Shown here: one piece after another, positions 34,777 through 57,211 of the stretch
Numbering within the stretch: the stretch's first letter is position 1
Layout of the letters: each line of letters begins with the position of its first letter
DNA from: an uncultured Methanosarcinales archaeon
Lineage (GTDB): Archaea; Nanobdellota; Nanobdellia; Woesearchaeales; GW2011-AR4
NCBI GenBank assembly: GCA_964438385.1
Contig: CAYTKI010000011.1
Coordinates: forward strand, 48,739 to 112,738
Reading direction: 5' to 3'
DNA: 64,000 nt
Notes under the pieces: model-generated
Databases searched by the model: none
Seen by the model: the letters and a program-made list of their open reading frames with translations, nothing else
What the model was told of the DNA's origin: nothing
Made by a program: the position numbers and the translations under genes

Positions 34777-35133
34777 CTACTCCCTCGCCCAGAAATAAAT
34801 CCCCAGCCCAATAATCAGAGGAGGGAACACCCACACATGGTACTTGATGTGAAGGCCGAAAATACCAACATAATAGCTAAGTATGCCCATCACGGCAAAC
34901 AAGAGCGCGCAGCCGATTACAAGCCGCTCAAGGAAGTCAAGCTTTTCCTTCCAGTAGAGCATGAGGGCATAGCCGGGAATCACAAAGAGCCAGAAAAGCG
35001 ATGCCACCATCTTCACGATAACGATTATGCTCTCCTTGTAGAAGGCGATCTTAAGCGCGATGAGCAGTCCAAAAAGGGCGATGCCAAGGAAAAGCAGTTC
35101 CCCTTTCAGTTCCTCAAAATGTTTTTTCAGCAA
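34777..35133 (-). CDS. Small 4-TM membrane protein
   Basis: 118 aa with four hydrophobic helices. Overlaps the end of the upstream large membrane protein gene by 20 nt. Confidence 0.4.
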   Translation of the reverse strand: MLKKHFEELKGELLFLGIALFGLLIALKIAFYKESIIVIVKMVASLFWLFVIPGYALMLYWKEKLDFLERLVIGCALLFAVMGILSYYVGIFGLHIKYHVWVFPPLIIGLGIYFWARE

Positions 35134-36757
35134 TGCACTCTCCTCCTACTTTTGTGTTCGTGAGTATCACAACCATATCGTTTTGGAACGCGACTTGGCC
35201 GCCATTCTCTATAAGATCGTTTGCAATTAAAAGGTTATACTGCGCAAGCGCCTCCTGCCTGCTTGCCTTGTCAAGCACAAAATAATCAAACAGGCAGATG
35301 TCATACGAGCCCTTCCACATGAAATCAGAGAGATCCGATCGCTGATGCAGTTTTATTTTCGGAAACGGGGAAAAATACGGCATCCCCGCCCCATGGTCAG
35401 CCGGAGTCTCTGTCTCAAATACGCGATGAATCGATCTGTTCTGCAAGTCAGCAACAAAATCCTCAGGGATTATTTGTGCGTGCGTCCGTTTGGCATTGCG
35501 AAGAATCGCATCCTGGGAATACGGATCGCCATAGAAGAAATAGACCTTCGCATCAGGAGCAGTGTTCTTGCCTATCCATTGCAGCGCCTCCCAGTGCCAG
35601 GGATCCATGATGCCAGGTCCCACAACTTTGTTGTAGGTTGGGATGTGCTTAAGAGAAAAGAGGGGGGAAAACGCGTTTGCAAAGAGGAAGAGAAAAAGGA
35701 TGCCAACCCCAATCATAGAGGGAGAACGAAAATACTGAGGGATCAAATTCAACAATAAATAAAGCCCCATTCCAAAAAAGAACATGAAATACACCGGCCA
35801 TAGTAGGCGCGGCTGAAACGCCCGAATGCCAAAGCCGATGTAGTTTGTATAGCCGACAAGAAGCATGAACACTCCGGCAATCACCAGGAGGTGCATCTTC
35901 CTAAAAAAGAGCATCCCTCCGATTAGGCCAGCCGCAAGGACTATCAGCAAAAGTCCAAAATCAGTGAGATAAAAGATAGGCGTTCCCCCCCAATCGGTTG
36001 AGACCGAGAAGGAATAGGGATTCACTACCTGAAAGCTCTGAACAAAGATGAGTAGGTTGTAGCCGACCAATGCTCCGGCAAGAAGCGCGGCAAAGAGAAT
36101 ACCAAAAAGAAATGATTTGGTGAATTGCTTGGTGAATAATAGATAAATTCCGAAAAGGGTGACAAACCCCGCGCCATAGAGAAGCTCGGAAGTGTGCGAC
36201 AATCCAAGAGCTGCAAAGAACATCCCAAGCAGAAGCCAGCTCTTCGAAAGTTCATTGCGGCACACTGCCCAGAAGATACATATCAGGAAGAGCTGCCCAA
36301 CAATCGACGCCCAATGCCCCCAGAGAAAGCCAATGTAGGATTTGCTGGAAAAGAGGAGCACTGCCAGGGGAAGCGAGAGCAGCGCAATATGCTTATTGAG
36401 AGTCCTGATAATGACATACATCACAAGCGCTGCCATAATTGCGCTCAAAAAAATCATGAAGTAAAGAGTGTCATAGAGCGGAATTCCAGTGGAGAAAGAG
36501 AGCAGAACCCCAAGATGGTGCAAAACAGGCGGGTAATACCCAACAACATCAGTATATCCCTTCACAATATATGGCGGCTCATGGCGGTAATTACCCACAT
36601 CCTTGATGCCTTCAGCCCGAGTCTGCTGCTGGAACGTGTCTGAGGCCATATACCCATAGGGAAAATCATGCGAGAGTTTGTGGTCCCATAGGTTTCCCAC
36701 ACCAAGAAAGAGAAGTACTGTAATCACAATCCAAAGGTAGGACTTTTCAAGGTTCAT
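35114..36757 (-). CDS. Polytopic membrane protein, putative GT-C-fold glycosyltransferase
   Basis: 547 aa, ~13 TM helices plus a C-terminal soluble domain. No specific family recognised. Confidence 0.4.
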   Translation of the reverse strand: MNLEKSYLWIVITVLLFLGVGNLWDHKLSHDFPYGYMASDTFQQQTRAEGIKDVGNYRHEPPYIVKGYTDVVGYYPPVLHHLGVLLSFSTGIPLYDTLYFMIFLSAIMAALVMYVIIRTLNKHIALLSLPLAVLLFSSKSYIGFLWGHWASIVGQLFLICIFWAVCRNELSKSWLLLGMFFAALGLSHTSELLYGAGFVTLFGIYLLFTKQFTKSFLFGILFAALLAGALVGYNLLIFVQSFQVVNPYSFSVSTDWGGTPIFYLTDFGLLLIVLAAGLIGGMLFFRKMHLLVIAGVFMLLVGYTNYIGFGIRAFQPRLLWPVYFMFFFGMGLYLLLNLIPQYFRSPSMIGVGILFLFLFANAFSPLFSLKHIPTYNKVVGPGIMDPWHWEALQWIGKNTAPDAKVYFFYGDPYSQDAILRNAKRTHAQIIPEDFVADLQNRSIHRVFETETPADHGAGMPYFSPFPKIKLHQRSDLSDFMWKGSYDICLFDYFVLDKASRQEALAQYNLLIANDLIENGGQVAFQNDMVVILTNTKVGGECIAEKTF

Positions 36758-36788: not shown

Positions 36789-37712
36789 TCATCTCTTCCT
36801 CGCATAGATAGTCACCTTATATCGCGGATCGACAAAGACTTTCCTTTTGTCTATCCCAAGGGAGGAGGACAGTGCGCCAAGGAGCGAGAATATCAGCTTG
36901 TTGTAGAGTTTTCCGCGCTCCATGGCCACTCCGATGGAAAAATACCTTCCCGCTGTTTCCACGCGAAGAATCTCAAAGCCAAGCGACTCAAGCATCTTCC
37001 TAAGTGTCTCTTCGGAAAAGAAATAGATGTGTTCGCGGACCCGGCGTACCTCTTCCCAGTTCTTTCCAAGAAGGCGTGCAACAACGCTTCCGATGTTTGG
37101 GGTGGTGATTGATATCACACCTCCTTTTTTCAGCACGCGTCCCATCTCCGCAACAGTCCTCTTAGGATCAGGAAGGTGCTCAATCACATCAAAGAGGGTG
37201 ATGGCATCAAACGATCCGGAAGGGAATTTCACCTGCTCGAGCGTCTTTTTCTGAACGGGAATCTTAAGTACCTTCTTCGTATAGGAATATGCATAATCCG
37301 CGAGCTCAAGTCCCTCAACCTTCCACCCCTGCTCCCGCGCCAATTCCAAAAAGAACCCGAGCGCGCAGCCGATGTCAAGCAGCTTTCCTTTTTTCGCATA
37401 GCGGTTGATCCACTTCAGCCGCAAATTAAATGTCGCGCGGATGTCATCTTTCTCCCGAAGGTACTCGCCATAGCCGAAGAACGTCGTCTTCTTGCCTTTG
37501 AACACGGGGTTGTGATAGTAATTCTTATCATAGATCTCATGGAGCTTCTTTTCCTTTAGCCGCGGATTTTGGTAGATGAGCCCGCATCTTCTGCACTTCA
37601 CAATCGTATAGCCATTGAGCTTCAGATACGCTCTTGCAGAATTCAAACCGCAGAGATTGCAAGAGACAAATTCTAAGGATGCTTCTGCGCCCATAATCTC
37701 CAAAGAAGCCAC
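36789..37712 (-). CDS. Class I SAM-dependent methyltransferase with N-terminal Cys4 zinc ribbon
   Basis: CNLCG...CRRCG zinc ribbon, LLDIGCALGFF motif I, DAITLFDVIEHL. Confidence 0.7.
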   Translation of the reverse strand: MASLEIMGAEASLEFVSCNLCGLNSARAYLKLNGYTIVKCRRCGLIYQNPRLKEKKLHEIYDKNYYHNPVFKGKKTTFFGYGEYLREKDDIRATFNLRLKWINRYAKKGKLLDIGCALGFFLELAREQGWKVEGLELADYAYSYTKKVLKIPVQKKTLEQVKFPSGSFDAITLFDVIEHLPDPKRTVAEMGRVLKKGGVISITTPNIGSVVARLLGKNWEEVRRVREHIYFFSEETLRKMLESLGFEILRVETAGRYFSIGVAMERGKLYNKLIFSLLGALSSSLGIDKRKVFVDPRYKVTIYARKR

Positions 37713-39991
37713 GCGCCATATATAAATATTATGAGCAGGGTGAGAAGGGAGATTGCAGCCCCTTTAACAAACGATGCGGGTCGATAGGAGAAGCGTATCG
37801 TACCCGGCTTTTCAACAATAACGGCGCTGATAACCGTGTCTGCCCTAAGGATTTCAAGTTGCGTTCCATCCTGCATAGCGCTCCAGTCATCAAAAAGGGA
37901 GAATTTCTCGCTTAGAACAAGTATGCCAGGTCCCTTAGGTGTGACTTCAATCGTATTGGGCGATATTCTTTTCGCATCAACAGGCATAAGCGATCCATTA
38001 AGCGAGCCAAGCAAATCCTCAATATCTGCCGCTTCAATGGAGTTTTTTCCTGATAGCATGTCCGGAAGCACAATCCCTCCCCCTTCCTTGTATTTTTGGA
38101 GGATGGCTGCAAAGTTTTGGTCAACCGAGCCCGCAGCAAGAATCACTGCCTTGAAGGAGGAGAGAAAGTCAGCATCATAATCATTGACGCGAGGCATTTT
38201 CCCATGGACAATCACCGTATGTTTAGGATCAAATTTCGAATCAAGGAGCAGCGCATAGGTAAGCTGCTTTGCCGAATCCAAATCACCGATCACAAGCACG
38301 GCATTGGGCGCAAGGTAATAGCGCGGAAGGAAATCCAGGTTCTCGTAGAGATAGGGACCTGCAATCCAGGTTGTCCACCCGGCTTTCTTGCACGGCGCGC
38401 ATTCATTGAATTTCTGCACAAGCCTATAACCGGAAACATTGACAGGCTTTGTGGAGAGCGCATAGCGCAGGTTGAGGATGCCAAGCAACTTTGTGGAACC
38501 ATAATTCTTCGCGATGCCAAGGAATGAGACATAGTCGTTGCTCCACAGGCTTCCTCCTCCATTGAGGGTCTCAAGGCCGTACTGCGCATAATAGCTGCTC
38601 CCATAAAAGGAGATGATGTCATTGACATCAAAGGTAGTGATCCTGAAAAATCCATGCTGCTCGCCCATGAATTTCGCAGCCTCGTTCTGATCAAACTGCT
38701 CTTGGACATTGAAACCCGCAGGCAGCCCTTTCATGAGCAAAAGTTCCGAGAGTATCGCGGCGCTTACTGCCACTACAATAGCAAGTTGCACTGTACTTTT
38801 TCCAGCAGAATGGAATTTTCTGGAAATCATCTGGAGGAAGTAGAAATACCCATATCCCGCAAGGAGGGAAGCGCAGAAGACGAAGACAAACATCACCCTT
38901 ACAATGTGTCTGGTCTGTGGAAAGACTGGAAGATATTTGTAGAACAATGCCGCAAGAAAGCCGCCTGATGCGAGGAGAACGATAAATGCGCATAGGATAA
39001 CCAAAAAGGCGACCATGCGCCTCTTAAATAAGAGAAATGAACACAGCGCCAACAGTGATGCAGCAATGCCAATGTGGATGGGATGGGAGGACGTCTCCCC
39101 TTTCACCACGACAATCTTGAGGAAATCCTTGAGCACAAAGTGATCCTCCCCGATATATTCCTGGTACGAGACTCCCTGCGCGCGGTTGGACTGGGAGATA
39201 AAGTCAGTGCTTGGCATCACCTTGACCGCAGAGAGTCCAAAAAACACTGCAAGAAGGATGGAAAAGACAACGGCAGTCCTGATAAGATTTTTCTTGATGT
39301 CTTTTCTGATGAGATCAAAAAAAAGATATGTGCCGATGAGGAGTATAGTGTAGAGGAAAGTGATTGCGCCTCCGGAGAATATCTGGAATGCGAGGAGCGC
39401 GCCAGCCGCAATGGAGAAGGGAAAGGGACTCTCCGCTTTTTTTGCCTTGAGCACGCATAGGAAGATGAAGGGAATAAGGGCATACGGCTCAAGGATGCTT
39501 GGGTTTCCTGACACGATGAATTGGTAGATGAGCCCATTAAACATGAACACAAGAGAAGCGATGAATGCGGCTCCTGGGTTCCCAAACAGATGCCTTCCGA
39601 GAAGATACATTCCGGCTCCTGCAAGGAAAAAATAAATCAGGATGGAAAGGTTAATCGCGAGAGGGATGATGCCAAAAAGCATCACAAAAAGATGCGTGAG
39701 GTTGAGGAAAAATACCTGGCCGTCGCCAAAGAGGGGCTGTCCCCCATACCAATAGGGTGTCCAGAGGGGAAGCGTTCCTTGCGCAAGCGCTGCTTTGTAA
39801 TTATAACTGAAGAAGGTCTGCTCATGCAGGTGATGCCCATTGTCCATCAAAGTCTGGGTTCCGATGAAGTTCTTGAAGAAAAAAAGCGAGAGTGTAAAAA
39901 GGGCAAGAAAAGCAAGGATATCCGCCTGCCTCTCCCTGCTGCCAAGCCAGGTAAAGTCATGCCAAGTCTTTTGCTGCGTGGATTCCATCAC
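37673..39991 (-). CDS. YfhO-family polytopic membrane glycosyltransferase (GT-C)
   Basis: 772 aa. N-terminal LWTPYWYGGQPLF matches the YfhO signature loop. Many TM helices plus a C-terminal TM. Confidence 0.6.
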   Translation of the reverse strand: MMESTQQKTWHDFTWLGSRERQADILAFLALFTLSLFFFKNFIGTQTLMDNGHHLHEQTFFSYNYKAALAQGTLPLWTPYWYGGQPLFGDGQVFFLNLTHLFVMLFGIIPLAINLSILIYFFLAGAGMYLLGRHLFGNPGAAFIASLVFMFNGLIYQFIVSGNPSILEPYALIPFIFLCVLKAKKAESPFPFSIAAGALLAFQIFSGGAITFLYTILLIGTYLFFDLIRKDIKKNLIRTAVVFSILLAVFFGLSAVKVMPSTDFISQSNRAQGVSYQEYIGEDHFVLKDFLKIVVVKGETSSHPIHIGIAASLLALCSFLLFKRRMVAFLVILCAFIVLLASGGFLAALFYKYLPVFPQTRHIVRVMFVFVFCASLLAGYGYFYFLQMISRKFHSAGKSTVQLAIVVAVSAAILSELLLMKGLPAGFNVQEQFDQNEAAKFMGEQHGFFRITTFDVNDIISFYGSSYYAQYGLETLNGGGSLWSNDYVSFLGIAKNYGSTKLLGILNLRYALSTKPVNVSGYRLVQKFNECAPCKKAGWTTWIAGPYLYENLDFLPRYYLAPNAVLVIGDLDSAKQLTYALLLDSKFDPKHTVIVHGKMPRVNDYDADFLSSFKAVILAAGSVDQNFAAILQKYKEGGGIVLPDMLSGKNSIEAADIEDLLGSLNGSLMPVDAKRISPNTIEVTPKGPGILVLSEKFSLFDDWSAMQDGTQLEILRADTVISAVIVEKPGTIRFSYRPASFVKGAAISLLTLLIIFIYGAWLLWRLWAQKHP

Positions 39992-40000: not shown

Positions 40001-41098
40001 TTATTTGAGCGCATGGCGCAATACCTTGGCTATCCTTTCTGCGGCATTGCCATCCCACAGGGGAGGCATGCTAGCTTTCCGTATGGTTTTCCCATCAAGG
40101 ATGGAGTTAGCGGCGGCAAGGATTTTTGTTTTGTCAGTGCTCACAAGCACATTCGTCCCACATTCAACGGTCGCAGGGCGTTCGGTATTCTCCCGCAGCG
40201 TGATGCAGGGAATGCCAAGGGCTGTGGTCTCTTCCTGGATGCCGCCGGAATCAGTGAGCACAAGCGCGCAATTGTCCATGAGCGAGAGAAAATCCAGATA
40301 TCCAAGCGGCTCGCAAAGTATCACATTATAATTCAAAATTTTCTTTTCAAGTCCGAATTTCCCTATATTCTTCCGAGTGCGCGGGTGGACGGGAAAAACA
40401 ATGGGCATGCGCTTTCCAAGATCTTCCAAAAGAGAGGTGAGGTGGATAAGGGATTTGGCATAGTCCACATTGCCGGGCCTATGTAGGGTAAGCACCACAT
40501 ATTTTTTTTTGGTGAGATGCATTCTCTCCAGCACATCTGATGATGCAGCCTTCTTGCGATGCGCCAAGAGGGAGTCTATCATGACATTGCCGACAAAAAA
40601 TGATTTCTCCTTTGGGATGCGCTCGTTCTCAAGATTGGTAATGGCGCTCTGTTCGGTGGTGAAAAGGTAATCGGAGATGTGATCAATGATGATGCGGTTG
40701 ATCTCTTCTGGCATGCTCCGATCAAAGCTGCGCAGTCCCGCTTCGACATGGCAGAGGGGGATGTTCATTTTTTTCGCGGTGAGCGCTCCGGCAAGCGTTG
40801 AGTTTACGTCCCCAACGACTACAACAAGGTTTGGCTGCTCTTTGAGGAAGATGCTCTCAAGGGCAGTCATCATCTCGGAAAGCTGCTTTACCGTGCTGCC
40901 ATGCTCCACATTAAGGACATAGTCCGGCCTTGGCATCTCAAGATCCGTAAAGAAGAGTTTTGACATGTTGGCGTCAAAATGCTGTCCGGTGTGGATAAGG
41001 ATCTGCCTGATGCCCTTGCTACTTGAGAATGCAGATATGATTGGCGCTATCTTGATGAAATTCGGCCGTGTGCCAACCACGTGGGCAATCTTGATCAT
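40001..41098 (-). CDS. wecB: UDP-N-acetylglucosamine 2-epimerase (non-hydrolysing)
   Basis: KIAHVVGTRPNFIKIAPI...HVEAGLRSFD...PEEINR...DSGGIQEE. Canonical WecB/MnaA blocks. Confidence 0.9.
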   Translation of the reverse strand: MIKIAHVVGTRPNFIKIAPIISAFSSSKGIRQILIHTGQHFDANMSKLFFTDLEMPRPDYVLNVEHGSTVKQLSEMMTALESIFLKEQPNLVVVVGDVNSTLAGALTAKKMNIPLCHVEAGLRSFDRSMPEEINRIIIDHISDYLFTTEQSAITNLENERIPKEKSFFVGNVMIDSLLAHRKKAASSDVLERMHLTKKKYVVLTLHRPGNVDYAKSLIHLTSLLEDLGKRMPIVFPVHPRTRKNIGKFGLEKKILNYNVILCEPLGYLDFLSLMDNCALVLTDSGGIQEETTALGIPCITLRENTERPATVECGTNVLVSTDKTKILAAANSILDGKTIRKASMPPLWDGNAAERIAKVLRHALK

Positions 41099-41178: not shown

Positions 41179-42324
41179 ATGGCAAAACAGGGCAAAAAAA
41201 AGATTCTGAAGGTGGCATCGGTCATCCCACCTCATGTCACCACTGCATCCATGGTGAATCTGCTCAAGGCGTATCGATACATCGCAAAAAAACACCAGGT
41301 TGAGTTTACCATCTTTGTGGATGAAGGCATTCAGGCAAATTTCCCAGGCTTTAGGGTAAAAAAAGTAAGGGGAATGGATAGCAAATGGTTCTACAAGGCG
41401 CTCTTTGTACTCGGATTACCAAGGTTCTACTATCCCTCATTAGTGAAAGAATTGGAGGGCTTTGATGTGATTGAGACCAGCACCCCGGAATTCTACATTT
41501 ACGCATACCAATCATACCTTGCTGCGAAAAAATACGGCTCGCGCCTGGTGCTAAGGACAAGCCAAACCATCCATGATTTTTTCCTCTTCCCCTATACTAA
41601 ATGGGTTGCGCTGCCTTTCGCAAGGAAAACATGCGAGTTTGCGAAATGGCTCTGCTTCACAAATCCTGAGTCCAGGGATTCCTATGTCAAGCTTGGGATT
41701 CTGAAGAAGGACGCGAAGAATGTCATCATTCTTGGCCATGGCGTTGATACAGCCATATTCAGGCCGATAAAAGTGAGGAAAGGTGGAAGCAAAAAAGTGC
41801 TGCTCTCAGTCGGCGCGCTCATGCAGCTTAAGGGCCATCAAAATATCATCAGGGCTCTTGCGTTTCTAAATGGGAAAGGCCATAAAAATCTTGAGTTGTG
41901 GATTGTGGGTAAGGGTGATTACCAAAAAACGCTTGAAGACCTTGCCTCGGAACTTGGATGCACAAGTCAGGTGAAATTCCTTGGAGCAATGGGACATGAG
42001 CAGCTCGCGCTCACATACAACAAATCGGATATTTTTGTCCTCGGTAATATCCACGACGTCACTCCGGCAGTGAGCGAGGCCATGCTCTGCAATCTCCCAG
42101 TGGTTGCAAGCAGGTGCGGTGGCATTGATTTTGTCATTCCTTCGGAAAAAATAGGAATCATCACTGGGTATAATGATCCAAAGGATTTAGCGGTCGGAAT
42201 TGAGCGAATTCTTGGGGACAGGCAGCTGAGGCAAAAGCTGGCAAAAAACAGCAGGAATTTCATCCTAAAGAATTTTTCAATCCAGAAAGTGGCAGAACGG
42301 CTCTACAGGGCTTACACTAGGTAG
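41179..42324 (+). CDS. GT4-family glycosyltransferase
   Basis: C-terminal GT-B/GT4 pattern: LLSVGALMQLKGHQNIIRA...ELWIVGKGD...FVLGNIHD...SEAMLCNLPVVAS (EX7E-like). Confidence 0.8.
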   Translation: MAKQGKKKILKVASVIPPHVTTASMVNLLKAYRYIAKKHQVEFTIFVDEGIQANFPGFRVKKVRGMDSKWFYKALFVLGLPRFYYPSLVKELEGFDVIETSTPEFYIYAYQSYLAAKKYGSRLVLRTSQTIHDFFLFPYTKWVALPFARKTCEFAKWLCFTNPESRDSYVKLGILKKDAKNVIILGHGVDTAIFRPIKVRKGGSKKVLLSVGALMQLKGHQNIIRALAFLNGKGHKNLELWIVGKGDYQKTLEDLASELGCTSQVKFLGAMGHEQLALTYNKSDIFVLGNIHDVTPAVSEAMLCNLPVVASRCGGIDFVIPSEKIGIITGYNDPKDLAVGIERILGDRQLRQKLAKNSRNFILKNFSIQKVAERLYRAYTR

Positions 42325-43604
42325 CGAATCGAGTGTTTCATGTTCTTAGGCGGGTGAAGGTACATCCCAAGCGCCTGGGCAGCAAACATGGTGACCCAGG
42401 AATTGACGTGTTTTCCGGTGTGGTCGTGCTTTTCCCCATAGAACCATGCATCGCCGCTCAGAAAACCGCCATAAGAATGATTTCCTTTTAACAGGCATTG
42501 GTGGGAGAGGATATTGCCTAGCGCATCTTGGAAAAAATCTTTGGGCTGCGGCATCTCGCCTAGGGCATGGAGCAGGATGACTAATCGAATCGCCTGGGCA
42601 TTGATGTCTGCGCTTTCCCGCTCAAGTGCAGTGCCGTCGACATGATGCGCGGAGAATCCATGGCTCTTAAGCCGCGCGGAGAGTATCCAACTAACGCTTC
42701 GCTTCACCGCTTCAAGGTATTTTTTCTCATCAAGCATGACCGCTGCGGTGAGCAGCCCTTCATTGGTATAACAGAATGGATGGAGAAAAGTGTTTCCTGT
42801 CAACTCATCGGTAATGAATCTCCCATCGGGCTGCTGAAAGCGCAGTGCCAGATCGCAGAGCCGAATAGCGGAAATTCTGTATTTTTCTTCTCCTAAGAGG
42901 TCATACAGGTTGAGAAGCCCGATTGCAAGCTTCGCGTGAAACGAGCCGGATTGCTTTGACCATTTGTCTCCCTTATGCTCAAATTCTCCTGTGGTGAGCA
43001 GGTGGCGCGTGAAAAACGATCCGTCCTCTTTTTGCATGGAGAGGAGCCAATCGCCAAGCTGAATGGCAAAATCCTTATGGCGCTGATCTGTTGTCTGCCG
43101 ATAGAGGTTTGCCACACCATTAAGGCACATCCCATTATCAAAGGTGCACGCCCTGGGAGAGAGTTGCCCATCTTTGTGCTCAAGCCGGCACAGGATTGCC
43201 TTTTCCCGATGGTCAAATGCAGTGGCCAAAAGCCAGTCTGCAGCCCGCGCCGCCCTTTCGACAAGAATTTTCTCCGGAGCGATACTGTTAAGATATAGAA
43301 GCGTTGTAATGCCGTAGCCGGTTATCTCGGAATAGGAGAAGGAAAAGGTGTTTGATGAAAGATCATGCCACGCATGAAAGCTGCCATCCATTTTCCCGCC
43401 ATCAAGGTTCTGGATGCCAGAATGCAAAAGCCATTCTTTCGCAATCTCAAGGCGGCTTTGGACATGGCCCTCAACGACTTCATGCGCCAAGGGTATCTCC
43501 CTCTTTGAGATGCAACTCGGGCGCAAGATCGTCCGCCCACACTTCAACTCCCTGTTCTGTTTGGGCACGGATAATAAGGATGCTGCCTTCTCCAGTTCCC
43601 GCAA
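42312..43604 (-). CDS. Hypothetical protein, possible (alpha/alpha)6-toroid fold (AGE/glucuronyl C5-epimerase-like). The N-terminal ~40 codons overlap the upstream gene and are probably not translated.
   Basis: ~430 aa, helix-rich, with repeated aromatic/Gly motifs. No firm family match. Overlaps the formyltransferase gene by 125 nt unless an internal start (~43391) is used. Confidence 0.35.
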   Translation of the reverse strand: MRELEKAASLLSVPKQNRELKCGRTILRPSCISKREIPLAHEVVEGHVQSRLEIAKEWLLHSGIQNLDGGKMDGSFHAWHDLSSNTFSFSYSEITGYGITTLLYLNSIAPEKILVERAARAADWLLATAFDHREKAILCRLEHKDGQLSPRACTFDNGMCLNGVANLYRQTTDQRHKDFAIQLGDWLLSMQKEDGSFFTRHLLTTGEFEHKGDKWSKQSGSFHAKLAIGLLNLYDLLGEEKYRISAIRLCDLALRFQQPDGRFITDELTGNTFLHPFCYTNEGLLTAAVMLDEKKYLEAVKRSVSWILSARLKSHGFSAHHVDGTALERESADINAQAIRLVILLHALGEMPQPKDFFQDALGNILSHQCLLKGNHSYGGFLSGDAWFYGEKHDHTGKHVNSWVTMFAAQALGMYLHPPKNMKHSIRYLV

Positions 43605-44409
43605 GTATCCCTTTTCCTTTCATGATGGCAAGGATGGCACCCGGCTTTCCTTTCTGCGCATGCTGTTCCGCTTTCCACACAAGGATTTTTGTGTTTTTGA
43701 AGGAGGTGAATGCTCCGGGATAGGGTTTGGTGAGAGCCCGCACAAGGTTGAAAATCTCTCGGGAAGGGGACTTCCAGTTGATTTTTCCATCCTCCGGCTT
43801 TCTGCGTGGGAGATAGGTGGCATCTTCCTTGTTCTGTTTTATTCTTGGCGCAGTGTTTTTTGCGAGGAGTGGAAGGTTCTTATGCAGCATCTCAACCGCC
43901 AAAAAATCCGCCTTATCAAAGAGGGTATTGACATCGTCCCTATCATTGATGGGAAAATTCCGCTGCTCGATGATATCGCCCTCATCCACTTTTGCCGTCA
44001 GGTAAAAGAGCGACACTCCCCATTTCTTCTCATCCTTAATCAGTGCCCAGTTAATGGAGGCGGCTCCCTGGTTTTTGGGAAGAAAAGAGCAGTGCACGCC
44101 AATGGTTCCAAGGCGAGGAATATTCAGGATGCTAAAAGGTATAATCTGAGACCATCCGGACTCAAGAATGATATCTGGCTTCAGTTCTTTCACCCTCTGG
44201 ATAATTGTGGGATTAGAGATTTTATCAAGCTTGTAGAGGGGGATGCCATGGGAAGCGCAGAAATCATCAAGCAGGACATGGCGCGATTTGGCAACTGCAT
44301 ACTTGTCTTCAAGGGTAAAAATGGAGGTAATGCGGCAATCCTTATGGCGCACAATCTCCTCCATGAAGCGTTTTGTTGAGAGTGTGCACCCAATGACGAC
44401 AATGTCCAT
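43480..44409 (-). CDS. Formyltransferase-fold enzyme (Fmt/ArnA-N-like sugar N-formyl/acyl-transferase)
   Basis: MDIVVIGCT...GIPLY...PDIILESGWSQIIP...GTIGVHCSFLPKNQGAASINWALI. Formyl_trans_N motifs (catalytic HxSLLPxxxG region). Start placed at the internal Met. Confidence 0.7.
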   Translation of the reverse strand: MDIVVIGCTLSTKRFMEEIVRHKDCRITSIFTLEDKYAVAKSRHVLLDDFCASHGIPLYKLDKISNPTIIQRVKELKPDIILESGWSQIIPFSILNIPRLGTIGVHCSFLPKNQGAASINWALIKDEKKWGVSLFYLTAKVDEGDIIEQRNFPINDRDDVNTLFDKADFLAVEMLHKNLPLLAKNTAPRIKQNKEDATYLPRRKPEDGKINWKSPSREIFNLVRALTKPYPGAFTSFKNTKILVWKAEQHAQKGKPGAILAIMKGKGILAGTGEGSILIIRAQTEQGVEVWADDLAPELHLKEGDTLGA

Positions 44410-44588
44410 GAGCCCTGGAGAGTTCGCTGTTTTAAAAGAGTTGTGGAGAGAATGTTTTTGTGTAAAAATCTCCTGCATAAAAAGTGGGTGGGTATGAGGT
44501 GGGTGAGGTTTAGGATTTATCTTACAAAGCTTCCTTCTACGCAAAACATTTAAAGCTTCTTCAGTAGCCATTCGCCAGGGGAATCATC

Positions 44589-45005
44589 GTGAATAGCTAC
44601 ACCTATGGGGAGATTGAAGTTGGGCAATCTGCGTCATTTGAAAAAACAATCACAAAAGAGGACATTCTTTTATTCTCAAAATTGACAGGGGACAAAAATC
44701 CGCTTCATGTGGATGAAGAGTACGCAAAGCAGACAAAATTCAAGAAACCAGTTGCATTCGGGCTCCTCATCAGTTCCCTGTGGTCTACAATTGCCGGAAT
44801 GCATCTTCCAGGGAAGCATTCGCTGATACTTTCTGTGCAGTCTAGTTTCAGAAAGCCCTGCTTCGTAGGGGATACCCTGACAGTAGAGGGTGTGGTGAGG
44901 CAGAAAGTGGATGTTGGAAGCATCCTCGTCCTGGGCCTCTCAGTGAAAAACCAGACTCGCGCGATTGTTGCTGATGGGGAGATGAAAGTGCAGGTGCTAA
45001 AGTGA
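44589..45005 (+). CDS. MaoC-like (R)-specific enoyl-thioester hydratase/dehydratase (hot-dog fold)
   Basis: 138 aa. LTGDKNPLHVDEEYA...FGLL is the MaoC hot-dog signature. Confidence 0.75.
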   Translation: MNSYTYGEIEVGQSASFEKTITKEDILLFSKLTGDKNPLHVDEEYAKQTKFKKPVAFGLLISSLWSTIAGMHLPGKHSLILSVQSSFRKPCFVGDTLTVEGVVRQKVDVGSILVLGLSVKNQTRAIVADGEMKVQVLK

Positions 45006-45709
45006 AGCAGGCAGTCATCCTTGGGATAAGCGGGGATCTTGGAAAAGCGATAGCGCGGATGCTGTTGAAAAAGGGGTATCGTATTCTGGGGACCTCCCAC
45101 ACCCATCAAGCGGAGGAGTTTGCAGGTAATGGGAATGTCGAGGTCGTTTCCCTCGACCTTTCCGACGCAAACCAGGTGGAAAAATTTTGCAGCCAGATTG
45201 GGAAGCTGGAGGGCATTGATTTCATGGTGAATACCATAGGAAGCTACACCATGGGCCGCTTTGAGCAGATCCCATTTGAGACATTCCAAAAAGATTTCAA
45301 CCTCAACGTGCTGCTTTATATTCAGGTGCTTCAGAAGGCATTTCCAAAATTCAGAAAAGATGCAAATCTCATCTTCATATTGACGGAGATGGTAGTTGGT
45401 GACCCGAGCTATTTTCTCACGCCTTACGTATCATCAAAGTACGCCCTCCTTGGGCTTATGAGGGCGCTCGCAGGAGAGCTGAAGCAGCGTGGCATTCGAG
45501 TAAATGGAGTCTCTCCGGGGATGATGGATACAAGATTCATAGCTTCAGTTCCGCGCATCGTAAAGGAGCAATACCTGAGAAATTCCCCCTTGGGTAAGTT
45601 TGTGGATCCAAAAGAAGTTGCCAATGTTATTGAGAATATCGTGGATGATCCTTCCATGAACGGAGAAAATATTCCTCTCTTGGGAAAGAAAATGCCGCAG
45701 GGAAAATGA
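45002..45709 (+). CDS. Short-chain dehydrogenase/reductase (SDR)
   Basis: AVILGISGDLGKAIA (TGxxxGxG-like), YVSSKYAL (YxxxK). 4-nt overlap with the MaoC gene. Confidence 0.75.
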   Translation: MKQAVILGISGDLGKAIARMLLKKGYRILGTSHTHQAEEFAGNGNVEVVSLDLSDANQVEKFCSQIGKLEGIDFMVNTIGSYTMGRFEQIPFETFQKDFNLNVLLYIQVLQKAFPKFRKDANLIFILTEMVVGDPSYFLTPYVSSKYALLGLMRALAGELKQRGIRVNGVSPGMMDTRFIASVPRIVKEQYLRNSPLGKFVDPKEVANVIENIVDDPSMNGENIPLLGKKMPQGK

Positions 45710-46041
45710 GGATTGGAATAGATATCGAGGAAGTGAAGCGTTTTGTGCTCAGTAGAAATCACCCTTTTATCAGGCATGCATTCACAAAAAAAGAAATGAG
45801 GTATGCGTTTTCAAGGAAAAATCCTGCAATGCACCTGTGCGGGTTCTTCTGCGCAAAGGAGGCGCTCATAAAGGCCCTCTGCCCTGCTTCGCTTCTTCTC
45901 AGGGAGATAGAGATTACGCACGGAAGGAATGATGAACCAAAGATGAGCATTCTCAAGAAAAGTTTAAAAATTCGGAAGGGGATTGATGTAAGCATCTCCC
46001 ACACGGAAAAATACGCAGTGGCAGTTGTGATGGGGAAGTGA
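45706..46041 (+). CDS. acpS: Holo-ACP synthase (4'-phosphopantetheinyl transferase, AcpS type)
   Basis: 111 aa. MRIGIDIEEVKRF...FTKKEMRY...FCAKEALIKAL...VSISHTEKYAVAVV. Classic AcpS blocks. Confidence 0.75.
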   Translation: MRIGIDIEEVKRFVLSRNHPFIRHAFTKKEMRYAFSRKNPAMHLCGFFCAKEALIKALCPASLLLREIEITHGRNDEPKMSILKKSLKIRKGIDVSISHTEKYAVAVVMGK

Positions 46042-46054
46042 GTGGGGAAGTCTC

Positions 46055-47758
46055 ATGAAAAAGATTAAGGTCGCGATTCTTTGCTCATACACCATCAACA
46101 ACCTTGTTCCTCCGCTAAAGGACGTTCTCTTGGAAAAGGGGTTTGATCCGGAGATCAGGTTTGGCGGGTATAACCAGTTTATCCAGGAACTGATGGATAA
46201 GTCCTCCTGGCTCGCAGATTTTAAGCCGGAAATCATTGTCGTTGCCCTCAGCGCAAGAACCTATCTTCAGGATCTTGAATATTATCTGTTGGATCTTTCA
46301 GAAACCGAGATAAATGGTCTCATTGATGAAAAATCCTCTTTTCTTCTCAGCGCAATTCAGGCATACCGGGAGCCGGCAAAGATTATCCTCACCACTTTAG
46401 ACTACCCCAATTACTCTCCGCTCGGCATAATGGACCTCATTTCTGACGTTGGGATGAAACATGGTATCGACCGATTCAATTATGCGCTCGTGTCATTCGC
46501 AAGGAAAAATCGCCAAGTTATCCTCATTGATTTTGATAAAGTGCTCTCTGGCATGGGAAAGGTGGAAGCGACCGACGAGAAGATGTATTATCTGGGAAAG
46601 CTTCTCCTACGCAATAATGCGGCAGCCGCCTTTGCTTGGGAGATTGCCGGCTGCATAGCGGCAACCTTTGGCCAGAGGAAGAAATGTATCGTTGTGGATC
46701 TTGATAATACCTTATGGGGAGGGGTGATTGGGGAGGATGGGGCAAATGGGATTGTGATTGGCGATGATGGGGTGGGCAGCGTCTATCGCGACATCCAAAG
46801 AATCCTTTTGAATTGGAAAAAATCCGGCGTGCTCCTTGCCATCGCCTCCAAGAATAACCCTGACGACGCCATCTCCGCGTTCAGGGAGAATGGGGCAATG
46901 GTGCTTAAGGAAGAGGATTTTGTGGCGACAAGGATCTGCTGGGAGAGCAAGTCAAAGGGGATCGCCTCCATCTCAGAGGAGCTCAATATCGGACTTGAGA
47001 GCTTTGTCTTTCTCGATGACAACCCTGCCGAGCGGCTGGAGGTGAGGACGCACCTTCCGATGGTTGAGGTCATTGATGTCCCGCAGGATATTGCCCTTCT
47101 TCCGGAAATGCTCAAGGGGCTCCGGCTCTTTTGGGCGCTCGCGCTCACAGAGGAGGATAAGCAGCGCCATGGGCTGTATATGCAGGAAAAAAGCAGGGCG
47201 GTGCTGAAGGAGAAAGTGTCTGTTGATGATTATCTTAGGGAGCTTGGCACATCAATAGTGGTGAAGAAAAATGATCTCTCCTCGCTTGAGCGGATAACGC
47301 AGCTCATCAACAAGACCAACCAATTCAATCTGCGCACCCAGCGCTACTCTCAGGAGCAGGTAAAAGCGCTTATGGAGTCAAAAAACAGCATGGTACTCTC
47401 GCTCCATGCTGCGGACAAATTCGGAGATCTTGGTCTCACCGGAATTATCATCATCAATAGGCAGAAAGAGAATGAATATTTTCTGGAAGGCCTTCTCATG
47501 AGCTGCAGGATTCTGGGGAGAAATATTGAGCGCCAGTTCTTCATCGAAGCGATAAAAGTGCTGAAAGGGGTGGACCCCTTGGCCATCCTGCATGCGGAAT
47601 ACGTCCCGACACAAAAGAACGGCATGATAAAGGATTTTTGCGCTCAGATGGGTTTTAAGATGATGGGGGAAGGGGATGGCAAACTATCATATTCCCTATC
47701 GCTTGGACAGTATCAGATTCACGATGTGCAGTCAATTGAGGTGAAACACTATGGATAA
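46055..47758 (+). CDS. FkbH-like HAD-superfamily (subfamily IIIC) enzyme; predicted (glyceryl-)acyl loader onto a carrier protein
   Basis: 567 aa. Central HAD core CIVVDLDNTLWGGVIGEDG...ASKNN...FLDDNP with a C-terminal FkbH-like region. Immediately upstream of an ACP gene, overlapping it by 8 nt. Confidence 0.65.
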   Translation: MKKIKVAILCSYTINNLVPPLKDVLLEKGFDPEIRFGGYNQFIQELMDKSSWLADFKPEIIVVALSARTYLQDLEYYLLDLSETEINGLIDEKSSFLLSAIQAYREPAKIILTTLDYPNYSPLGIMDLISDVGMKHGIDRFNYALVSFARKNRQVILIDFDKVLSGMGKVEATDEKMYYLGKLLLRNNAAAAFAWEIAGCIAATFGQRKKCIVVDLDNTLWGGVIGEDGANGIVIGDDGVGSVYRDIQRILLNWKKSGVLLAIASKNNPDDAISAFRENGAMVLKEEDFVATRICWESKSKGIASISEELNIGLESFVFLDDNPAERLEVRTHLPMVEVIDVPQDIALLPEMLKGLRLFWALALTEEDKQRHGLYMQEKSRAVLKEKVSVDDYLRELGTSIVVKKNDLSSLERITQLINKTNQFNLRTQRYSQEQVKALMESKNSMVLSLHAADKFGDLGLTGIIIINRQKENEYFLEGLLMSCRILGRNIERQFFIEAIKVLKGVDPLAILHAEYVPTQKNGMIKDFCAQMGFKMMGEGDGKLSYSLSLGQYQIHDVQSIEVKHYG

Positions 47759-47999
47759 GAACCTGGAAGAAAATGTAAGAAAGACAGTGGAAACAGTCAT
47801 GGGTGTTGATATCGGGGCTATGGACAGTGAAACTAAGTTTAGTAGCATCTCCGCATGGGATTCATTCAACAACCTCATGCTCATTTCCAAGTTTGAGGAG
47901 GAGTACAATGTGCGCTTCACCGCAGTAGAGATCGAGCAGACGCAGACAGTGGGCGATCTGCTTATCTTGATGGAGAGAAAAGTCGAAAAAGCGCAATAA
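47751..47999 (+). CDS. Acyl carrier protein (copy 2)
   Basis: 82 aa. SAWDSFNNLMLISKFEEEY is a DSL-type phosphopantetheine attachment site plus helix II. Homologous to the 15881..16099 ORF. Confidence 0.6.
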   Translation: MDKNLEENVRKTVETVMGVDIGAMDSETKFSSISAWDSFNNLMLISKFEEEYNVRFTAVEIEQTQTVGDLLILMERKVEKAQ

Positions 48000-48069: not shown

Positions 48070-50151
48070 TTAGCCCTTTGAAACAGCAAGCACGACCATG
48101 CCCTGGTTCTGGAATGCCGGGGTGAATTTTTGGCTGGAGATGAGCTCCTGCACTTTCATGTTTGTTGCGTTCATGCCGAATTTGCGCGCGGCCTGCCCAT
48201 CAATGACAACGTATTCATAGTTGTGCTGCGCAGCCCAATCGTGGATTTCCTGTGCTGATAAATTAAAGCCGTTTTTCTCAAAATCCTTTATCTCAGGGCA
48301 CCATGCGCAGGTATATTTGTCAAAGGCAAGTAGAAGCGCATCATTGGAGAACGAAAAGATCGCGGAATTTGTAGGCAATGCCTGGTGCAGCCACAGGTAG
48401 CCGGATATCTCTTCATTTGACGTCCAGAAACCCCCTGGCCCCCATTGCGCCGTATTGACGGCATATTTCTGGACAAATGATGTCTGGATGATCCCATAGC
48501 CAAGCAGTGCGATAAGAATGCTCGAGCCAACAAGCGCGATAGCGGGGTTTGAGATGCTGCGAATTGATGATCGGGCTAAAGTCAAAAGTGTAAAAATACC
48601 TTCCCCGGCAAGAATCGCGACGGGAATTGCAAGCAGCATCCACGCTCGGAAGGGGGAGAGCCGAAGAGCAAAGGGGGAGGCGTTCACGGCGTAAAAGCTG
48701 AAGGCAAGCCAGCCAAGGGAAAGCAAAAGGTGCGTATCGCCAAAATCCTTGTTCTTCCAGCATGAGAATGCGAGCGTGACGAGGAGGAAAAGCATGATTC
48801 CAAGGAAGAATATCAAAAAGAGCTGGTCAGTGAAGAATTCCATGAAAGGGATGCTTCCCGGCTGAAGTTTTGCAAATGTTCTTTTTTCAGGGTATTTGAC
48901 ATAGGACTTCCACAGGATGAGGATGATAAAAAGGAAGAGTGCGGGAAAAACAAGCAGAATTGGCTTCGCGTGCTGGGTTATTTCCGTTCTGTATTTGAAA
49001 AAAAGAACTGTCAGTGAAAACGTGAGAAGAAGAGTGATTACGAGCCCAAGCCCGGTGGGATTATTGATGAGGTTTTGACTCTGCGCAAAGAGAAAATCTG
49101 AAAGGTAATATTGGCGATCCGCAGTGCCGCTTACTGAAATCGCATCAGAGGCATTGGAGAGCCCAAGTCCTGCGAGCGTGCCGGAAAGTCCGTGGCGGAC
49201 TAGTGCAGGAAGCCACCACAGCAAAAAGGAAAGGAATATTCCTAGTAACGCCGCTGCATATTCATTCCAAAGAAACCTGCGCGCAGCAAGTGTCCTGATG
49301 CCTATCCAGATAATGAGAAAAAATCCAAAGTAGGCGCTGTGGCTCGGGGAGGTGGTGAGCGTCGCAAAAATGAGAACTGCCGCACTTATGCCCCACCACT
49401 TATCTTCCCGCATGCGCTCAAGGCAGTAGAATGAAGTGAAGAAAAGAGGCATGGTGAGCGCAATCGCCCAGATGAAATGGCTCATGAACGCAGGCAGGGC
49501 AAAGAGTGCAAACGCGGAAAAAAATGCTTTCTTCGAGCTTGAGGTGAGCTGGCGCACAAGGAAATAGAAGATGATGATGTAGAGGGATATAATGAGCGCG
49601 TTGAAAAACTTAAGCGTCCAGTAGAGGGAGTCATTGGTCTGGTGTATTACTCCCATCACCATATCATACGCGGGTGGATAAGGGTCCATATAGCGAAGCG
49701 ACGCTCCCTCTGGGCGAAACAGTGACTTCTCCAATGAGACATATTTTGCACCGACCGCATGTCCCCAGGGATCGTCATCTTCAAGGTAGGGATAGGCAAA
49801 CGCGCCCTTGTGGTACATAAAAAAGGTGAGGCTAAAGAGAATAAGCATTCCGATGATGTAAGGATTGATGTTGAAGGAAATTGGAACTGCAAGGAGTTTC
49901 TTTGTTTTCCATAATCTGAATCCGAATGCCATGATGATTCCAGTTAATGTGATGGTAAGGAAAATTCGGTAATCGATTGGAACGTGCAGCAGATTGAGTA
50001 GGTATCCTAGCGAGACAAGTCCCCCCAGGCCGATTCCCAGGCGCATAAGATGCCGCTCAAGAAAGCTCTCAGAGTTCTTTGCGGAAAATGTCAGCAGATA
50101 GCCAAGGCCGTAGCAGAGCGCAAGGAAGACGATGATGCTGAGGGGATACAT
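48070..50151 (-). CDS. Polytopic GT-C-fold glycosyltransferase (PMT/ArnT/AglB-like)
   Basis: 693 aa, >14 TM helices, acidic first-loop motif YPYLEDDDPWGHA. Confidence 0.5.
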   Translation of the reverse strand: MYPLSIIVFLALCYGLGYLLTFSAKNSESFLERHLMRLGIGLGGLVSLGYLLNLLHVPIDYRIFLTITLTGIIMAFGFRLWKTKKLLAVPISFNINPYIIGMLILFSLTFFMYHKGAFAYPYLEDDDPWGHAVGAKYVSLEKSLFRPEGASLRYMDPYPPAYDMVMGVIHQTNDSLYWTLKFFNALIISLYIIIFYFLVRQLTSSSKKAFFSAFALFALPAFMSHFIWAIALTMPLFFTSFYCLERMREDKWWGISAAVLIFATLTTSPSHSAYFGFFLIIWIGIRTLAARRFLWNEYAAALLGIFLSFLLWWLPALVRHGLSGTLAGLGLSNASDAISVSGTADRQYYLSDFLFAQSQNLINNPTGLGLVITLLLTFSLTVLFFKYRTEITQHAKPILLVFPALFLFIILILWKSYVKYPEKRTFAKLQPGSIPFMEFFTDQLFLIFFLGIMLFLLVTLAFSCWKNKDFGDTHLLLSLGWLAFSFYAVNASPFALRLSPFRAWMLLAIPVAILAGEGIFTLLTLARSSIRSISNPAIALVGSSILIALLGYGIIQTSFVQKYAVNTAQWGPGGFWTSNEEISGYLWLHQALPTNSAIFSFSNDALLLAFDKYTCAWCPEIKDFEKNGFNLSAQEIHDWAAQHNYEYVVIDGQAARKFGMNATNMKVQELISSQKFTPAFQNQGMVVLAVSKG

Positions 50152-56602: not shown

Positions 56603-56770
56603 GAAGTTGCCTGTTACTCATAATTTATTTTTAAGTCTATTGCATATAACGGTCCATAGAGAAAACGCGAAATGTTTTTAAACGAGGCGGCGTTCTTTGG
56701 GAAGGGTGAATGCGTGGATTCCATCGACAAATTCAAGGATTCAGAAGGGAGAATTAGCAGGGAAAATATC

Positions 56771-57211
56771 ATGAAGATTATCCCATACAACGAGCATTTC
56801 CTTTTCATAGATGAAGTGGTCTCTTTGGATAAGAAGAGGATTGTCGCAAGAAAGAAAATTACGGGAAAAGAAGATTTCCTCAAAGGTCATTTTGTGGATT
56901 TTCCAATTACCCCGGGGGCATTGATTGTCGAAGGGCTTGGCCAGGCAGCGACTCTACTCGCACGCTACAGTATTCCAAATCACCAGAAAAAAGATGTGCT
57001 CGCATACAAGATCCGCGATGCGAAATTCATGGCTCCGGTGCTTCCGGGCAGTGAGATGACCTATGAGGTGGTCTCGCAGGGGCAGATGGAGAAATTTGCC
57101 ATGATGCAGGGCAAGGTATTTGTGGATGGGAATCTCACTGCGGAAGCGTTCATGATGCTTGCGATAGTCGATCGTGATGCGTTTAGGGGTAAGCACTCCT
57201 CCGCGAAATAA
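56771..57211 (+). CDS. fabZ: 3-hydroxyacyl-thioester dehydratase (FabZ-like hot-dog fold)
   Basis: IIPYNEHFLFIDEVVSLD...GHFVDFPITPGALIVEGLGQAA matches the FabZ IPHRyPFLLiD...GHFPg.PvmPGvL..EamaQ block. Confidence 0.75.
   Translation: MKIIPYNEHFLFIDEVVSLDKKRIVARKKITGKEDFLKGHFVDFPITPGALIVEGLGQAATLLARYSIPNHQKKDVLAYKIRDAKFMAPVLPGSEMTYEVVSQGQMEKFAMMQGKVFVDGNLTAEAFMMLAIVDRDAFRGKHSSAK

Follow-up and report, generated by a model that had tools for sequence, protein, structure and literature searches.

Among membrane-bound O-acyltransferases (MBOATs), DltB is to our knowledge alone in drawing its acyl group from a carrier protein. Carrier domains are charged with glycerate by FkbH domains, which use 1,3-bisphosphoglycerate as the source (PMC8949500), and an FkbH loading module, which follows the logic dehydratase (DH)-ketoreductase (KR)-FkbH-acyl carrier protein (ACP), has been tabulated as giving D-lactate-ACP, citing Zhang et al., JACS 2011, for FR901464 (PMC7901079). 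Here we describe a locus in which genes of the latter kind appear to be combined with genes for a Dlt-like export. It lies in a 64,000-nt stretch of contig CAYTKI010000011.1 (positions 48,739 to 112,738 of the forward strand; assembly GCA_964438385.1) from an uncultured archaeon, which is called the window hereafter, and its core is a cassette of five genes for a MaoC-type hot-dog dehydratase, a short-chain dehydrogenase/reductase (SDR), a 4'-phosphopantetheinyl transferase (PPTase) of the AcpS type, an FkbH-like loader and an ACP. We propose that the cassette makes lactyl-ACP, and that the lactyl group is exported by a Dlt-like MBOAT and a DUF1574-type SGNH protein to become an ester on a surface glycan; to this account as a whole we give an even chance of being correct. 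Its parts differ in strength: the cassette very probably makes a three-carbon (C3) acyl-ACP, the acyl-ACP probably goes by the MBOAT route, and whether the acyl group is lactyl is evenly balanced in our judgement.

The cassette starts with the MaoC gene (44589-45005, 138 aa), which is followed on the same forward strand by the genes for the SDR (45002-45709, 235 aa), AcpS (45706-46041, 111 aa), the FkbH-like protein (46055-47758, 567 aa) and the ACP (47751-47999, 82 aa); a gene for a formyltransferase-fold (Fmt-like) protein, called at 43480-44571, lies upstream on the reverse strand. The original prediction, made from the sequence alone, listed these six open reading frames (ORFs) and described every junction within the five-gene unit as overlapping. 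The six ORFs are present at these positions, but three of the four junctions overlap (MaoC/SDR and SDR/AcpS by 4 nt each, FkbH/ACP by 8 nt), and a spacer of 13 nt lies between AcpS and FkbH. We considered whether this spacer is a mark of separate units and rejected the idea, because relatives overlap these two genes by 8-20 nt. Profile searches against Pfam and NCBIfam, which had been proposed as a check, confirmed all six domain assignments. According to an alignment of homologues, the Fmt-like protein starts at the ATG at 44409 and not at 44571, which gives 309 aa (43480-44409); with this start the divergent intergenic region between the Fmt-like and MaoC genes is 179 bp, and TTTAAA-type boxes were spotted by eye 25-40 nt upstream of both divergent starts.

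The FkbH-like protein was found by the FkbH model TIGR01686 of NCBIfam with 300.8 bits against a cut-off of 146.65 (residues 209-536), its HAD-IIIC core by TIGR01681 with 78.4 bits and its FkbH_N domain by PF21211 of Pfam with 35.3 bits. Queries by exact sequence, made with the window FkbH-like protein and with the protein P0001, matched no record. In an alignment of 25 relatives, the HAD motifs D215xD217xT219, S265, K299 and D321-D322 are invariant, and so is the C-terminal S483-C484-R485..R489..E492. The AlphaFold (AF2) model (predicted local distance difference test, pLDDT, 90.2) has three domains, of which the N-terminal and HAD parts superpose on PDB 3SLR, a fragment of Bacteroides BF1531, with TMt 0.88; the same PDB entry aligns to residues 2-370 with 153 bits. 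The C-terminal domain of the model has a GNAT fold (TMt about 0.7 to GNATs), which is visible only by structure prediction; scanned by themselves against Pfam, the last 188 aa had no match. Cys484 is modelled between the last strand (474-482) and helix 491-506, in a loop that we take to be the place where GNATs bind pantetheine. The TIGR01686 match over residues 209-536, the GNAT fold and the invariant S483-C484-R485 bear out the prediction that the FkbH-specific C-terminal region is present and that the protein is not a plain HAD phosphatase. An SCR(V/I)LGR motif is common to the window protein and the FkbH domain P0361 (453 bits), which is embedded in a nonribosomal peptide synthetase (NRPS); the comparison with FkbH domains inside megasynthases covered P0361 and P0391, both NRPS-embedded and uncharacterised. 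Megasynthases of the DH-KR-FkbH-ACP type were sought among the closest long FkbH matches and none was found: the candidate P0435 is a radical-SAM (S-adenosylmethionine) fusion, and P0391 and P0361 are NRPSs with C-FkbH modules rather than DH-KR loaders.

Of the four smaller proteins, the ACP exceeds the PP-binding cut-off of Pfam (24.7 bits against 20.8), and in its W-D-S motif, compared among 94 ACP-like ORFs of FkbH loci, W36 is kept in 92, D37 in 91 and the attachment residue Ser38 in 93, as predicted for a genuine carrier. AcpS matches ACPS (PF01648) with 58.4 bits over residues 2-108 of its 111 and TIGR00556 with 66.3 bits against a cut-off of 45.35. The MaoC protein is of the single hot-dog type (MaoC_dehydratas, 66.4 bits in Pfam), and its hydratase-2 motif keeps the catalytic Asp35 and His40 without exception in a set of 11 orthologues and fusions; the SDR (adh_short_C2, 113.6 bits in Pfam) has an invariant glycine-rich cofactor motif and invariant Tyr142 and Lys146. 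Both enzymes therefore look active, judged by their kept catalytic residues. In 24 other FkbH loci MaoC is fused N-terminally to the SDR in one polypeptide, and the SDR is fused or directly adjacent to MaoC in 35 of 43 MaoC-bearing loci, which were counted with a MaoC profile built from single-domain sequences, MaoC-SDR fusions being left out of it. The frequent fusion argues that the two enzymes act in sequence.

To see how widely this arrangement occurs, we surveyed about 165 FkbH-anchored loci annotated with profiles made from the window proteins; they include a close set of 10 independent loci (45-55% FkbH identity) and a distant set of 65 loci flanked on both sides by 5 kb or more. The family of FkbH-like proteins, clustered at 50% identity, counts 13,790 clusters under a threshold of E <= 1e-3 and 6,108 under one of E <= 1e-30, an ACP-like ORF lies immediately 3' of FkbH in 74 of 156 loci, and the FkbH-ACP pair was found in DPANN, Asgard and Nitrososphaeria archaea and in many bacteria. 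Such a cassette had been thought unusual for an archaeal genome, and this view does not hold for so widespread a pair. The order MaoC-SDR-AcpS-FkbH-ACP is the same in five relatives with 48-55% FkbH identity (L002, L084, L085, L171 and L173), and chance does not explain a five-gene order shared by at least five independent relatives. We thus regard the five genes as a conserved cassette of DPANN archaea, predicted to be self-sufficient, and the functional unit that had been proposed, which loads a glycolysis-derived C3 acid on a dedicated carrier with its own PPTase, hot-dog dehydratase and SDR, is upheld. No AMP-binding ligase was found in the cassette or its relatives. AcpS lies within the FkbH cassette in five of seven archaeal loci (L010, L013, L014, L016 and L024) vs 4 of 67 bacterial ones (p = 1.5e-4). 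As far as we know, ACP and AcpS are otherwise rare in archaea. The archaeal enrichment fits hosts without a housekeeping PPTase, in which the cassette brings its own. The nearest homologues of both the FkbH-like and the Fmt-like proteins carry the names Nanoarchaeota, Woesearchaeota or Aenigmarchaeota, so that by homology the window comes from a DPANN archaeon, in line with the archaeal origin that had been suggested.

The survey also points to a partner for the cassette. In 7 of the 10 close relatives (L002, L085, L092, L095, L172, L173 and L174) an MBOAT gene lies at most three genes from the cassette, and it is usually followed by an SGNH gene of the DUF1574 type; MBOAT is absent from L001, which has SDR-FkbH only, and from L171, and the contig of L084 stops just 3' of the ACP gene. 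Among the 65 distant loci, ACP was found in 46, the MaoC-SDR pair in 18, MBOAT in 15 and Fmt, within 8 kb, in 2, and the DH-KR pair and MBOAT occur together in nine (odds ratio 6.8, p = 0.003). When all 44 MBOAT-containing FkbH loci are taken together, the MBOAT gene lies on the same strand at most two genes from the ACP gene in 23, often with gaps of -41 to +71 nt.

The window contains one MBOAT only, as judged by tblastn with the partner genes of the relatives. Its gene (22826-24277, reverse strand, 483 aa, MBOAT in Pfam) overlaps by 4 nt that of a DUF1574-like SGNH protein (21852-22829, reverse strand, 325 aa), and this pair is adjoined by a gene for a class I SAM-dependent methyltransferase (21004-21855, forward strand, 283 aa, Methyltransf_23). 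The MBOAT is 37-49% identical over the full length to the cassette-adjacent MBOATs of L174, L173, L085, L002 and L172, a divergence about equal to that of the FkbH orthologues. DltB is its sole match both in NCBIfam (137.9 bits against a 375-bit cut-off) and in PDB (6BUG, 94.6 bits); its WNRWHISL aligns with WNRWHMSL of DltB, so that the conserved catalytic His is kept, and its C-terminus reads F-I-Y-F-Q-F, with Tyr480. A C-terminal tail of the form [FL][LIVM]Y..F is present in 39 of 50 FkbH-linked MBOATs. This C-terminal hexapeptide was reportedly described by Schultz, Snow and Walker in 2023 as an acyl shuttle, on DltX and fused to other MBOATs. Another class of MBOATs in FkbH loci was also noticed (L024, L056, L066, L106, L111, L132, L139 and L155); its members are about 390-425 aa long, have no fused F-x-Y-x-x-F tail and may rely on a separate DltX-like microprotein.

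No function is known for DUF1574, a family of SGNH proteins (PMC9487903). The window member is 26-31% identical to the genes that follow MBOAT or ACP in L002, L085, L172, L173 and L174, and it has an N-terminal hydrophobic membrane anchor and invariant block I (G62-x-S64) and block V (D294-x-x-H297). The methyltransferase is 41% identical to that between ACP and MBOAT in L174 and 38% identical to that after ACP in L171, and the same family is found inside or beside the FkbH cassettes of L055, L075, L035, L106 and L155; this recurrence suggests that many of these systems methylate the acid while it is on the carrier. The position of the family varies among the ACP-MBOAT, MaoC-SDR-FkbH and FkbH-ACP intervals (for example L174:4769-5671, L055:8901-9875 and L106:11337-12236). 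The whole block at 17.5-24.3 kb (GDSL, glycosyltransferase (GT) family GT9, SGNH, methyltransferase, DUF1574, MBOAT) matches genes that flank the L002 cassette, and this match indicates that the system of the window is split in two sub-clusters, 21 kb apart, within one large glycan region. GT-C/PMT_2 enzymes adjoin the MBOAT gene here (24418-26061) and in L172 and L084. The real unit appears to consist of eight genes in two sub-clusters, with the formyltransferase belonging to a different module, and the recurrent MBOAT and SGNH partners point to O-acylation outside the membrane.

From the domain identities, active-site motifs, gene order, fusions and synteny in relatives, which are direct observations, we infer the following pathway, in which the chemistry at every step, the nature of the acyl group, the hand-off from ACP to MBOAT and the acceptor are to be read as proposals. 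AcpS would turn the 82-aa ACP into its holo form at Ser38. The FkbH-like protein would take in 1,3-bisphosphoglycerate, its HAD core would strip the phosphate, and the glyceryl group would be held on Cys484 of the GNAT-fold domain before it passes to the ACP thiol. MaoC would dehydrate glyceryl-S-ACP across C2-C3, with loss of the C3 hydroxyl, to give enol-pyruvoyl/pyruvoyl-S-ACP, and the SDR would reduce the 2-keto group to give lactyl-S-ACP; for the DH-KR-FkbH-ACP logic, He et al. reportedly demonstrated the DH* and KR* steps in 2014. O-methylation of the acid by the methyltransferase can be imagined as a speculative addition. A glyceryl or tetronate-like product had been envisaged, but lactyl is likelier since a dehydratase and a ketoreductase are present in the cassette. 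By analogy with DltC and DltB, the acyl-ACP would dock on the MBOAT, and the neighbouring formyltransferase would not be its user. The MBOAT would carry the acyl group across the membrane onto Tyr480 of its own F-I-Y-F-Q-F tail, from which it would go to Ser64 of the DUF1574 SGNH protein and finally form an ester on a hydroxyl of the surface glycan, an acceptor whose assembly would fall to the locus's many GT-C, GT2 and GT4 enzymes.

Several points weigh against this pathway. The MBOAT, SGNH and methyltransferase genes of the window are 21 kb from the cassette, so that what links them to it is orthology with relatives rather than their own position, and our view of the genome is one of 64 kb only. 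L171 has the identical five-gene cassette, which is followed by a methyltransferase and a Hexapep acyltransferase and preceded by DegT, with no MBOAT within 9 kb; L174 lacks the SDR and has MaoC and a methyltransferase, which means that lactyl is not the universal product. About three quarters of the distant FkbH-ACP loci are without a nearby MBOAT, and the family must thus use several acceptors. With regard to chemistry, we know of no MaoC-type enzyme shown to act on glyceryl-ACP.

One rival explanation follows the original prediction: the adjacent formyltransferase-fold enzyme would hand the ACP-bound hydroxy-acid to the amino group of an amino sugar linked to a nucleotide, and an N-acylated sugar would result. 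In its favour, the Fmt-like gene and the cassette lie next to each other in divergent orientation, with 179 bp between them. The Fmt-like protein has Formyl_trans_N (79.8 bits) and Formyl_trans_C (74.9 bits) matches in Pfam and is below every equivalog cut-off of NCBIfam. In place of the catalytic Asn of Fmt, ArnA and PurN (FNLH in ArnA), it has Gly (IGVH), as do 24 of the 26 aligned sequences, while His106 and Asp142 are kept, and this change leaves room for a non-canonical donor; we observed that the Gly-for-Asn group of Fmt/ArnA-N-like proteins is mostly archaeal, and that the gene is near wecB in the six loci described below. HypX/HoxX and 10-formyl-tetrahydrofolate (THF) dehydrogenase are among its PDB relatives, and formyltransferase folds are known to work with pantetheine thiols. 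Against this stands the synteny of the Fmt-like gene itself. It is followed in all six loci seen (the window and L086-L090) by a gene for an (alpha/alpha)6-barrel, N-acylglucosamine 2-epimerase (AGE)-fold protein, here at 42312-43478 on the reverse strand, whose AF2 model (pLDDT 95.2) has its best PDB matches in cellobiose, glucose and N-acylglucosamine 2-epimerases (TM 0.72-0.77). In L086 and L087, with Fmt homologues at 60% identity, the (alpha/alpha)6 protein, GT4 on the opposite strand and wecB come in the same order as in the window with no cassette nearby, and a methyltransferase is in the cassette's place. In three Aenigmarchaeota loci (L088-L090, 48% identity) the (alpha/alpha)6 protein and wecB are followed by FolD, 5-formyl-THF cyclo-ligase, serine hydroxymethyltransferase, GT2 and two PMT_2 genes, and these folate genes are good circumstantial evidence for a folate-derived one-carbon donor. 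Conversely, an Fmt gene was found beside the cassette in none of the 10 independent close relatives and in 2 of the 65 well-flanked distant loci within 8 kb. No sugar aminotransferase of the DegT type was found among the window ORFs of at least 150 aa that were scanned, which, together with the MBOAT and SGNH partners, speaks against N-acylation of an amino sugar. We therefore judge the Fmt-like gene, on its synteny, to head a conserved module of its own (Fmt-like, AGE-fold, GT4, WecB) and not to be a member of the cassette; nothing ties its product to the ACP, and the role of the acyl-transfer step assigned to it is very unlikely. Even less credible is a scheme in which the FabA-like, thiolase and FabG-like genes at 56.6-62.8 kb make a lipid or a polyketide-like chain and the acyl-ACP serves as its primer. 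These genes lie 8-15 kb downstream in the same window, and the general rarity of ACP and AcpS in archaea could be counted in its favour; however, in none of the relatives does the cassette contain or adjoin a gene for a ketosynthase or an acyltransferase, the gene set is not syntenic with the cassette elsewhere, and thiolase-type enzymes of that kind use CoA esters.

More serious, though still unlikely, is the possibility that a soluble acyltransferase (hexapeptide-repeat LpxA/LpxD-like, or GT-associated) uses the acyl-ACP in the cytoplasm, where it would acylate a nucleotide sugar or a glycan on a lipid carrier before export, and that the window MBOAT is an independent O-acetyltransferase of the acetyl-CoA type. 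The gene arrangement of L171 and the lack of MBOAT in most distant FkbH-ACP loci are what it would lead one to expect; the window also has a Hexapep protein (10638-11351), and the FkbH-domain gene cj1302 of C. jejuni lies among sugar-modification genes in the flagellin glycosylation locus (PMC7099621). The close relatives argue otherwise, because MBOAT is directly beside the cassette in 7 of the 10 and the MBOAT, SGNH and methyltransferase of the window are homologous to exactly those cassette-adjacent genes; moreover, the window Hexapep gene is 34 kb off and has no demonstrated relation to that of L171, and the scan of the window ORFs mentioned above gave no aminotransferase. L171 itself (10931-12517 and 5266-6360), with its methyltransferase, hexapeptide acyltransferase and DegT, is a variant locus, in which the same acyl-ACP supply may serve N-acylation in the cytoplasm. 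It is also conceivable, with a similarly low probability, that the MBOAT route is right and the acyl group is not lactyl but glyceryl, pyruvoyl or an O-methylated group (2-methoxypropanoyl or methoxyacryloyl). Di-O-methylglyceroyl groups are known on flagellin sugars of C. jejuni, the methyltransferase family recurs in the cassettes, many MBOAT-linked FkbH loci carry neither MaoC nor SDR, and L174, as noted, has MaoC and a methyltransferase without the SDR. The window MaoC and SDR, however, are intact and translationally coupled with their catalytic residues kept, and the frequent MaoC-SDR fusion speaks for sequential action. We keep lactyl-ACP, exported by MBOAT and DUF1574, as the preferred account.

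The surroundings are those of a large glycan locus. The flanking wecB (40001-41098) and GT4 (41179-42324) genes are present as predicted, and so are the GT-C genes, for which we take the polytopic pair at 37673-39991 and 48070-50151 as GT-C-like. Within about 26 kb the window encodes five large proteins (24418-26061, 30682-33264, 35114-36757, 37673-39991 and 48070-50151), three of which have no Pfam match; the three whose sequences were read (35114-36757, 37673-39991 and 48070-50151) are polytopic and GT-C-like. Many methyltransferase genes and deoxythymidine diphosphate (dTDP)-rhamnose genes (27398-29930) lie among them, and this combination implies an unusually elaborate surface-glycan machinery acting outside the membrane. 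We also observed, inside the glycan region, a full 2-oxoacid dehydrogenase complex on the reverse strand (11348-17432: E2 11348-12427, E1-beta 13902-14876, E1-alpha 14873-15895 and E3 16104-17432), with an AlgX-like SGNH gene (12533-13669) inserted between E2 and E1-beta and another AlgX-like SGNH gene at 19694-20851. A co-directional set on the forward strand (56672-62804) encodes a FabA-like dehydratase, a thiolase, a DUF362 Fe-S protein, a FabG-like SDR, a second thiolase and a family III CoA-transferase, and could be an ACP-independent pathway of the fatty-acid type. No tRNA genes were found in the window.

If the preferred account is true, its consequences would go beyond this locus. Tentatively, and with somewhat less than an even chance in our estimate, we suggest a widespread and so far undescribed modification of prokaryotic envelopes, in which surface glycans are esterified with glycolysis-derived C3 hydroxy-acids (lactyl, O-methyl-lactyl, pyruvoyl, glyceryl) that are made on a carrier by FkbH, with or without DH-KR and methyltransferase, and exported by a DltB-like MBOAT, to which a tyrosine shuttle is fused, and a DUF1574 SGNH transferase. 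DUF1574 would then gain its first function, thousands of genes annotated as 'HAD-IIIC/FkbH-like' in polysaccharide loci would gain a role, and the MBOAT would be the second known carrier-protein-fed one after that of Dlt. The Dlt paradigm (carrier protein, MBOAT, SGNH transferase, envelope polymer) would be extended to a donor drawn from glycolysis and to archaea, and genome-reduced DPANN, normally without ACP and AcpS, would have imported the whole kit including the PPTase. An ester-linked lactate or a relative of it would mark the cell surface in DPANN archaea, which depend for their way of life on contact between cells. The acyl groups can be told apart on the holo-ACP by predicted mass shifts of +88 Da (glyceryl), +70 Da (pyruvoyl), +72 Da (lactyl) and +86 Da (O-methyl-lactyl).

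We could not find the combination of an FkbH acyl-ACP cassette with MBOAT/SGNH export described in full-text literature, subscription literature being outside the scope of the search. Queries for FkbH and MBOAT together gave only cyanobacterial natural-product work, and those for FkbH with polysaccharide, glycosylation or lactate, or for HAD-IIIC with lactyl- or glyceryl-ACP, gave only work on polyketide synthases (PKSs) and NRPSs and a passing mention of cj1302 of C. jejuni. Among the systems that can be compared, C. jejuni has glyceric-acid-derived N-acyl groups on pseudaminic acid. Its flagellin glycosylation locus (cj1302 and extra ACPs) resembles the present one in having an FkbH-family gene among surface-glycan genes (PMC7099621), and differs in that cytoplasmic N-acylation of a nonulosonic acid is thought to occur and no MBOAT/SGNH export step is known there. 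The FkbGHIJK pathway for methoxymalonyl-ACP and the glyceryl-ACP pathways of tetronates (FkbH, OzmB, RkD and Tmn16 type) share an FkbH loader with a discrete ACP and sometimes a methyltransferase, whereas our locus has no FkbK- or FkbI-type dehydrogenases and no downstream PKS, and stands in the context of a glycan locus.

Loading modules of the FkbH-DH-KR-ACP type in trans-acyltransferase (trans-AT) PKSs are the nearest counterpart of the cassette, bryostatin BryA being one further example. That of FR901464 has the same four activities in the same order, with a proposed conversion of 1,3-bisphosphoglycerate into a lactyl-S-carrier (PMC7901079); here the activities are on free-standing proteins (a MaoC-SDR didomain in bacteria), the MaoC is a single hot-dog, and no ketosynthase or polyketide extension is present. 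On the export side, O-acetylation systems of the AlgI/AlgJ/AlgX, PatA/PatB and WssH types likewise esterify a surface polymer by an MBOAT and an extracytoplasmic SGNH partner, but they use acetate and encode no dedicated carrier donor, whereas relatives of our locus pair a full acyl-ACP cassette with the MBOAT. The likeness is closer to Dlt, the system of DltA, DltC, DltB, DltX and DltD for D-alanylation of teichoic acids in Gram-positive bacteria: in both, a carrier-protein thioester is the cytoplasmic donor (here by prediction), the MBOAT is of the DltB type with the His of WxxWH(M/I)SL, an F-x-Y-x-x-F shuttle tail is present, and a membrane-anchored SGNH-fold protein would take the last step. 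The differences are that the adenylating ligase DltA is replaced here by an FkbH phosphatase/acyltransferase that would load from a glycolytic intermediate, that a hydroxy-acid in place of D-alanine would add no positive charge, that the tail is fused to the MBOAT and not on a DltX microprotein, that the SGNH partner is DUF1574 and not DltD, and that the host is an archaeon without teichoic acids. The window system is thus, by its gene content, not Dlt proper, because it has no DltA, an MBOAT below the DltB cut-off (137.9 against 375 bits) and another SGNH family. All its parts come from known families, and each half has a known analogue, the FkbH-DH-KR-ACP loading of PKSs for the one and the export of Dlt for the other.

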